Below, piece by piece: positions 1,573 to 2,574 of a stretch of DNA of 2,574 nucleotides. Location: assembly GCF_003334315.1 (NCBI RefSeq), contig NZ_QOWR01000109.1. One strand, written 5' to 3'. The stretch's first letter is position 1, and the number at the start of each line of letters is the position of its first letter. The DNA is from Escherichia coli (GTDB taxonomy: Bacteria; Pseudomonadota; Gammaproteobacteria; Enterobacterales; Enterobacteriaceae). A model generated the notes under the pieces. That model saw only the letters and a program-made list of their open reading frames with translations, was not told the origin of the DNA and did not search any database. Made by a program: the position numbers and the translations under genes.

Positions 1573-1601
1573 AAAAAGCAACAAAAAAGTTGTAAAATAT
1601 C

Positions 1602-1630
1602 TTGACATTTCATATATTGTATGTTAATAT
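1602..1630 (+). promoter_or_regulatory. Sigma-A-type promoter: -35 TTGACA (1602-1607), 17-bp spacer, TGn-extended -10 TAATAT (1625-1630)
   Basis: Perfect -35 hexamer, a 5/6 match at -10 with TG at 1622-1623 in the extended -10 position, and optimal 17-bp spacing. An A-rich tract (1571-1590) sits where an UP element would be. Predicted transcription start is near 1637. Sequence inspection only. Confidence 0.6.
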
Positions 1631-1636
1631 AATTAT

Positions 1637-1839
1637 ATAGGGTGATTATTTTTCCTTTATTGGTTCGATATTAAAAATTCTTCTTGTCGTTAAAGGGGAG
1701 TAAAATCTCCGCTCCCCGCTTCTCCTCCTTAAGTAATACTGTGTCATTTACCTCTTTTTTCCTTTGTTATGCATACATCTTGGAGTGTGCATAACATAGG
1801 GTAATTACAAAGGCGGCTTTAAATGCTGCCTTTTATTTT
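1637..1839 (+). ncRNA. Putative structured 5' leader or small RNA (about 200 nt) running from the predicted start site to the terminator hairpin
   Basis: Bounded by the promoter at 1602-1630 and the hairpin plus U-tract at 1809-1839. It contains a G-rich block AAAGGGGAG (1692-1700) that can pair with any of three CU-rich blocks (1706-1710, 1712-1717, 1721-1727), and an imperfect 10-bp inverted repeat (1767-1776 with 1785-1794). No ORF with a credible SD lies inside. I could not match it to any riboswitch class from memory. Confidence 0.3.
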
Positions 1840-1851
1840 GCCCGTTATGCA
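1766..1851 (+). repeat. Three copies of the 8-mer GTTATGCA: 1766-1773 (+), 1788-1795 (inverted, TGCATAAC), 1844-1851 (+)
   Basis: Exact 8-bp matches read directly from the sequence. The first and second copies form an inverted repeat with a 14-bp spacer; the third lies between the terminator hairpin and the 1902 CDS. Candidate operator half-sites or RNA structural elements. Confidence 0.3.
1809..1839 (+). terminator. Intrinsic-terminator-like hairpin with U-tract (AAAGGCGGC-TTTAAAT-GCTGCCTTT then TATTTT)
   Basis: The GC-rich stem GGCGGC (1812-1817) pairs with GCTGCC (1825-1830) including one G-U pair, is extended by three A-U pairs, has a 7-nt loop, and is followed by TTTTATTTT (1831-1839). 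It sits 237 bp after the stop of the 1234-1572 CDS and 62 bp before the 1902 start, so it could terminate block A, attenuate readthrough into block B, or both. Confidence 0.55.
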
Positions 1852-1901
1852 ACTTAAAAGTTGTATTTCTTACTTTAAACAAGGTAACAAGGTTTATATA
1901 A

Positions 1902-2473: not shown

Positions 2474-2492
2474 TAAAAGGAATAATAATAAA

Positions 2493-2574
2493 TGATTTGG
2501 ATTGGCCCCTATATTTCCATACACTTTTTATCACTTAACCCATTACTGGTTCGCCGCCGCAGATATTCCCGTGG
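2493..2574 (+). CDS. Possible 5' end of a further CDS, truncated by the window edge (MIWIGPYISIHFLSLNPLLVRRRRYSR...)
   Basis: ATG at 2493 follows AAAAGGA at 2476-2482 (10-nt spacing). The frame has no stop through the window end (27 codons). There is no terminator between 2473 and 2493, so it would be co-transcribed with block B. Low confidence because it is short and incomplete. Confidence 0.3.

Follow-up and report, generated by a model that had tools for sequence, protein, structure and literature searches.

The 3' edge of the stretch analysed here (the window, 2574 nt of Escherichia coli DNA, 37.2% GC) ends in a GC-rich run with consecutive arginine codons, which raises the question of whether it marks a junction with DNA of different origin or simply a basic motif in the next protein. 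Both readings were offered by the original prediction, made from the letters alone. The last 27 nt, GGTTCGCCGCCGCAGATATTCCCGTGG at 2548-2574, are 66.7% GC. This value is extreme relative to the 37.2% of the window, as had been claimed, but it is not unique, since 6 of the 2548 27-mers of the window reach it, at three places (137-139, 2238-2239 and 2548). For the 77-nt foreign segment delimited below (2498-2574), GC content is 46.8%, and 10.9% of the 77-mers of the window are equally high. GC composition by itself, without homology, would not be significant as evidence for a junction.

The open frame at the edge gave a similarly mixed picture. It lies on the + strand, begins with an ATG at 2492-2494 (not at 2493, where its start had been placed) and is still open at the end of the window, with the translation MIWIGPYISIHFLSLNPLLVRRRRYSR. 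Its four arginine codons, CGC CGC CGC AGA, occupy 2552-2563, and the hexamer CGCCGC is absent from the rest of the window. The idea that CGC is alien to the codon usage of the window did not hold, because CGC already accounts for 6 of the 24 arginine codons in the six main ORFs.

To identify the terminal DNA, we searched with the whole window by megablast, fetched the relatives that it matched, and made profile comparisons with NCBIfam, Pfam and PHROG. Positions 78-2497 were 94-97% identical to a chromosomal island of hundreds of E. coli genomes, while both edges of the window matched IS3-family transposase features rather than the island. The segment 2498-2574 was identical at 77/77 positions (E=1e-31) to DNA annotated as 'IS3-like element ISEc27/ISEc36 family transposase'. 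Matches to this segment at 99% identity or more were present in 22 E. coli records and in 290 plasmid records, the plasmids being mostly from Klebsiella. In four copies of the insertion sequence (IS) that lie in differing flanks, the homology begins exactly at TGGATTGG. Homology of this order makes the junction certain. It also relocates the compositional shift, which is real but had been placed at the visible rise in GC: the true discontinuity, at 2497|2498, lies approximately 50 nt further upstream. The features of the 3' edge are as follows.

2474-2491, + strand: island spacer that separates the capsid gene from a 120-aa ORF (stop codon at 2471-2473) and aligns colinearly in every uninterrupted relative
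2477-2481, + strand: Shine-Dalgarno-like AAGGA of the capsid gene, read from the sequence
2492-2497, + strand: ATG ATT, capsid codons 1-2; every pattern-matched uninterrupted relative reads AAATGATTCTAGGYAATGATTACG...
2493-2497, no strand: TGATT, left copy of a presumed 5-bp target-site duplication, by reference to the 5-bp duplications of the reference copies
2498-2574, - strand: right end (IRR, donor) of an IS2-group element (ISEc27/ISEc36), outer 77 nt, with 77/77 identity to many annotated copies
2498-2538, - strand: terminal inverted repeat IRR, TGGATTGGCCCCTATATTTCC..., whose minus-strand end ...GGGGCCAATCCA-3' is a CA-3' donor terminus
2509-2574, - strand: last 21 codons and stop codon of the transposase (OrfB/OrfAB), translation PREYLRRRTSNGLSDKKCMEI*, which the ISEc36 transposase of the reference copy L005 also has at its C-terminus

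IS2 has a 41-bp IRR with a CA-3' end, and its IRR is the donor end (PMC3299598); the 41-bp length given here to the IRR was taken by analogy with IS2. The segment 2498-2538 has the form of an IS2-type terminal inverted repeat with the donor-end TG...CA, and it pairs with the left repeat (IRL) in the complete copy L005 (inverted repeat I1). Read on the minus strand, the element finishes with ...CCAATCCA-3', the CA-3' donor (IRR) end. A DDE (rve) transposase runs into this repeat; the window carries its 21 terminal codons and stop, and the catalytic domain lies beyond the window. The terminal peptide, PREYLRRRTSNGLSDKKCMEI*, is homologous to the C-terminus of IS2 InsD. CGC CGC CGC is the complement of CGG CGG CGA (Arg-Arg-Arg), and Leu-Arg-Arg-Arg stands near the C-terminus of the transposase. 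The arginine run noticed on the + strand is therefore present as CGC CGC CGC AGA, but it is a coding feature only on the opposite strand, in the transposase.

Profile comparisons of the reference proteins agreed with this assignment. OrfB scored 205 bits against NCBIfam NF033516, IS3 family transposase (cutoff 160). Against NF006918, 'IS2 transposase TnpB', it scored 575.5 bits, under the cutoff of 597, with a query that lacked the first 15 profile positions, which may explain part of the shortfall. OrfA scored 263 bits against the NCBIfam IS2 TnpA profile (cutoff 229). On the evidence of its sequence, then, the DNA at the 3' edge is the end of an IS3-family, IS2-group element, indistinguishable over 77 nt from ISEc27/ISEc36. 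The proposed junction with DNA of different origin was thus correct: beyond 2497 lies an IS end, from an element of 54% GC that abuts DNA of 37-38% GC (by part, 0.366 for the island portion of the window, 0.385 for the island in relative L001 and 0.543 for the full IS).

The architecture of the element could be read from complete copies elsewhere. One of these (L005:2501-3831, 1331 bp) lies inside the topoisomerase III gene of an mcr-1 plasmid; it starts with TGGATTGGCCCC and finishes with GGGGCCAGTCTA. Its terminal inverted repeats are imperfect, its transposase is annotated as having a programmed frameshift, and a 5-bp duplication, AGAAT, borders it on both sides. An orfA/orfB arrangement with an annotated programmed -1 frameshift (OrfAB) was seen in the reference copies, and the 5-bp duplications of three complete ones are AGAAT, TGAGA and ATTAC. 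The part of the element visible at the end of the window shows no difference from ISEc27/ISEc36: all 77 nt are identical, and these include both the transposase C-terminus and the IRR with its terminus TGGATTGGCCCC. As annotated (NCBI PGAP names), ISEc27 and ISEc36 are 99.4% identical over 838 comparable nt, so that 77 nt cannot decide which name applies.

IS2A of K-12 (insC1/insD1) is colinear with the L005 copy; both are 1331 bp and they are 81% identical without gaps, and the right end of IS2A matches the terminal 77 nt of the window at 67/77 positions. The two have in common an IRL beginning TAGACTGGCCCC..., an IRR of the form ...GGGGC(A/C)AATCCA, the orfA/orfB arrangement and a 5-bp target duplication. 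Because OrfB falls below the NF006918 cutoff and the nucleotide identity to IS2A is 81%, the IS in the window is classed, from these comparisons, as a relative (sister) of IS2 and not IS2 proper. The mechanism of IS2, in which a figure-of-eight is followed by a minicircle and the IRR donor ends in CA-3' (PMC3299598), is presumably shared by the ISEc27/ISEc36 lineage.

The surroundings of the IS copies gave two further observations. The flanks of three independent copies (2476-2497 of the window, L002:2495-2516 and L003:2501-2524) are alike and AT-rich, for example ATAAATGA just before the IS end, and because of this similarity BLAST matches ran 16-22 nt beyond the IS terminus. The resemblance may reflect a target preference or chance. 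On the Serratia plasmid L003, a deposited 'hypothetical protein' CDS (L003:1915-2565) runs from the flank into the same IS end; it is a chimeric ORF of the same kind as the + strand frame of the window.

We next determined what the element had interrupted. All 29 distinct uninterrupted E. coli relatives that were fetched are colinear with the window to exactly 2497 and then read on as ATG ATT CTA GGY AAT GAT TAC...; the window reads ATG ATT | TGG ATT GGC CCC..., with the break at 2497|2498. The interrupted gene encodes a protein of 342 aa annotated as a major capsid protein, which matches Pfam PF03864 (Phage_cap_E) and PHROG 29, major head protein (E=5e-15). Alignments, annotation and domain matches all identify 2492-2497 as the start of this annotated capsid gene in the uninterrupted relatives, in which the gene is 44% GC inside an island of 38.5% GC. 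The original prediction had proposed extending the window downstream and identifying the next gene by homology, and had named an ordinary continuation of the operon as the outcome that would speak against a junction. Extension was possible by proxy, and it leads into an IS of 54% GC in this genome and into the capsid gene at 44% GC in the uninterrupted relatives. Ordinary operon continuation was found only in the relatives, where ATG ATT opens the major capsid gene.

The same junction was present in a second assembly, possibly not independent of the source of the window. This Logan contig (SRR3824135, L031) is 100% identical to positions 78-2527 and has the identical junction; it stops 30 nt into the IS and lacks an IS3 at window position 77/78. 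The proA-thrW flank of the contig matches K-12 at 99.6% identity, so the host is E. coli or Shigella. Exact-protein look-ups recovered numerous relatives without the interruption and a single contig, L031, that shares the junction; among the relatives none was identical near the 3' end. Megablast with positions 2400-2574 found no record spanning the junction in 5426 complete E. coli genomes; insertion of ISEc27/ISEc36 between capsid codons 2 and 3 was thus seen in none of the complete E. coli genomes searched. Exact-match scans of genome_contigs and metagenome_contigs for the predicted right junction, with a second TGATT, gave no match.

Taken together, these results indicate that the 3' edge is almost certainly a transposon junction, at which an IS2-group IS has split a major capsid gene between its second and third codons, in a small island that carries an integrase and resembles a prophage or a satellite. 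An IS insertion into a prophage-like island is an ordinary feature of an already-known kind. The element, of about 1331 bp, would have inserted between these codons by a copy-out/paste-in route through a circular intermediate. It is oriented with the IRR (donor) end facing the window and the transposase on the minus strand, so that the GC-rich stretch and the arginine codons are those of the transposase C-terminus in reverse. As a gene the + strand ORF is functionless, consisting of two capsid codons followed by antisense IS DNA. A simple insertion with a TGATT duplication would give the far junction ...GGGGGCCAGTCTA-TGATT-CTAGGTAATGATTACG..., and by a polar effect the capsid gene would lose both its ribosome-binding site and the transcription coming from upstream, so that the capsid module would be disabled.

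The far junction of such an insertion, ...GGGGGCCAGTCT-A|TGATT|CTAGGT, would also rebuild ATG ATT CTA GGT, leaving the capsid ORF intact. The rebuilt ORF would lack its own AAGGA ribosome-binding site and the upstream operon. It is conceivable, but quite improbable, that the IS rewires capsid expression rather than destroying it, with the intact ORF behind a G-rich Shine-Dalgarno-like leader, AGGGGG, 7 nt upstream. If true, such rewiring could, for example, be a reversible switch through IS excision.

Several other explanations of the edge were weighed against an IS2-group insertion into the capsid gene. A real operon gene starting at 2492, whose small protein product would be hydrophobic at the N-terminus and carry a basic RRRR motif, would account for an ATG with an upstream AAGGA (2477-2481) that opens a frame unbroken to the end of the window. 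However, the ATG and ribosome-binding site at 2477-2494 are those of the capsid gene in all uninterrupted relatives, and from codon 3 onward the frame is antisense to the IS end, where a complete IS would stop it after 41 aa. The same 77 nt stand beside unrelated flanks in hundreds of records and so have no fixed upstream start, and over 2509-2574 the coding strand is the minus strand, with the transposase C-terminus. The length, the start and the flanks of the frame are therefore not those of a genuine + strand gene, and this candidate, which we consider to have next to no chance of being correct, was rejected: its start belongs to the capsid gene and its remainder is antisense IS. The basic motif in the next protein was lost with it, since the ORF is two capsid codons fused to antisense transposase. 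An attachment (att) boundary of a horizontally acquired island, in place of a transposon, was an equally remote prospect. The island is integrase-borne and AT-rich relative to E. coli, as such a boundary would suggest, but the foreign 77 nt are IS sequence and not chromosome, and in relatives the island runs on for about 4 kb (capsid, 67-aa, 609-aa and Dit-like genes and integrase) before chromosomal genes are reached. As the island extends past 2497 in relatives, the att boundary was also rejected.

An assembly artefact, in which reads from the island and from the IS were joined although the genome contains no insertion, is suggested by the resemblance of the window to a short-read contig with repeat ends, where misjoins arise. 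Such an artefact is very hard to credit, given that the join coincides to the nucleotide with the IS terminus (TGGATT...), as is also the case where four other copies meet their flanks, and that the Logan assembly SRR3824135 has the identical junction although it was made with a different assembler and k-mer size. The alternative that deserves most attention, though still unlikely, is an IS-mediated rearrangement: DNA between two IS copies would have been deleted or inverted, or the IS truncated, with the capsid and downstream genes absent or located elsewhere. It would fit the lack of a match to the far IS junction in the genome_contigs and metagenome_contigs scans, the presence of further IS insertions, and of truncations, in this island elsewhere (strains L010, L007/L008 and L036), and the additional IS3 carried by the source island. 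Against it, the junction lies at the exact IS terminus, the flanking pentamer fits an ordinary 5-bp duplication like those of the three complete copies, and no positive sign of rearrangement was seen. A simple insertion of the IS2-group element therefore remains our preferred explanation of the 3' edge.

The 5' edge of the window also falls within an IS, of a different kind, with the following features.

1-77, - strand: left end of IS3, comprising the IRL and the first four codons of orfA (ATG ACA AAA ACA), 77/77 identical to two IS3 copies
78-80, no strand: ATC, presumed 3-bp target duplication of IS3, aligned with the uninterrupted L031 sequence ...CCTGATCAGCTTCC

The start of orfA at this edge reads ATGACAAAAACA on the minus strand. 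The IS3 end abuts the island at position 78 and interrupts a replication-initiator-like HTH gene, the uninterrupted sequence of which is present in L031. Exact-match scans for the left junction in viral_contigs, genome_contigs and metagenome_contigs gave no match, nor did an exact-protein look-up of the chimeric IS3/island ORF. The IS segments at the two edges are exactly 77 nt each. At repeat boundaries, de Bruijn-graph contigs leave k nucleotides (77 for k=77) or k-1 (30 for k=31). The two edges fit the first case and the Logan contig, with its 30 nt of IS, the second, so the window is probably a complete short-read contig (k=77), broken at both ends inside multi-copy IS elements. A complete contig would allow no extension in its source.

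The order of island genes in relatives is a resolvase and, after about 2 kb free of genes, small ORFs; next come a replication-initiator-like HTH protein, four to five unknown ORFs and the capsid gene, followed by a 67-aa ORF, a 609-aa protein that matches a tape-measure PHROG, a Dit-like protein and a tyrosine integrase. It is located at thrW (the CP4-6 site of K-12) or beside the pao genes. The integrase-bearing island is about 11 kb (L001:1215-13690; L006-L035), and it has a capsid of the lambda-gpE type with no portal or terminase annotated. The island resembles a phage satellite that has yet to be characterised; searching the literature for a satellite at thrW turned up no description. 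The gap, from the resolvase to the first small ORFs, corresponds to L001:3141-5218, about 2 kb without an annotated gene, and the same gap is present in the gene calls of L006-L012.

The window itself contains a shorter, 330-nt gene-free gap at 1573-1901 (+ strand). Within it, at 1602-1630, lies TTGACA-17-TAATAT preceded by a TG, the site most like a sigma-70 promoter in the window, and a terminator-like hairpin at 1809-1833 is followed by a T-run. The promoter-like site and the hairpin would bracket a transcript of approximately 200 nt (-57.5 kcal/mol, MFE z = -4.69), which is conserved with small indels across nine variants of the island. An Rfam search of the window, this stretch included, gave no match. 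The transcript may be a small RNA or a leader belonging to the island.

Other IS3-family insertions occur in this island family, involving different IS and different sites: IS3 in strain OkiPb01688, and elements in L010, L007 and L008. Insertions were located at L036:5235-6397, L010:7254-8744 and L007/L008:10250-11406, and in other strains the IS lie in the 120-aa gene, towards the 3' end of the capsid gene, and inside or beyond the Dit-like gene. Either the island is a recurrent IS target or it is decaying.

The biological weight of the finding is small; insertions of this sort into prophage-like islands happen routinely, and Enterobacterales plasmids commonly carry this IS. Its main consequences are for annotation. 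The 3'-terminal 'ORF' should not be called a gene, the arginine run belongs to the transposase on the other strand, and both edges of the window are most probably assembly breaks at repeats and not biological boundaries. The capsid gene and the replication-initiator-like gene of the island should be treated as interrupted in this strain and, with both genes interrupted, the island is probably immobile or defective here.
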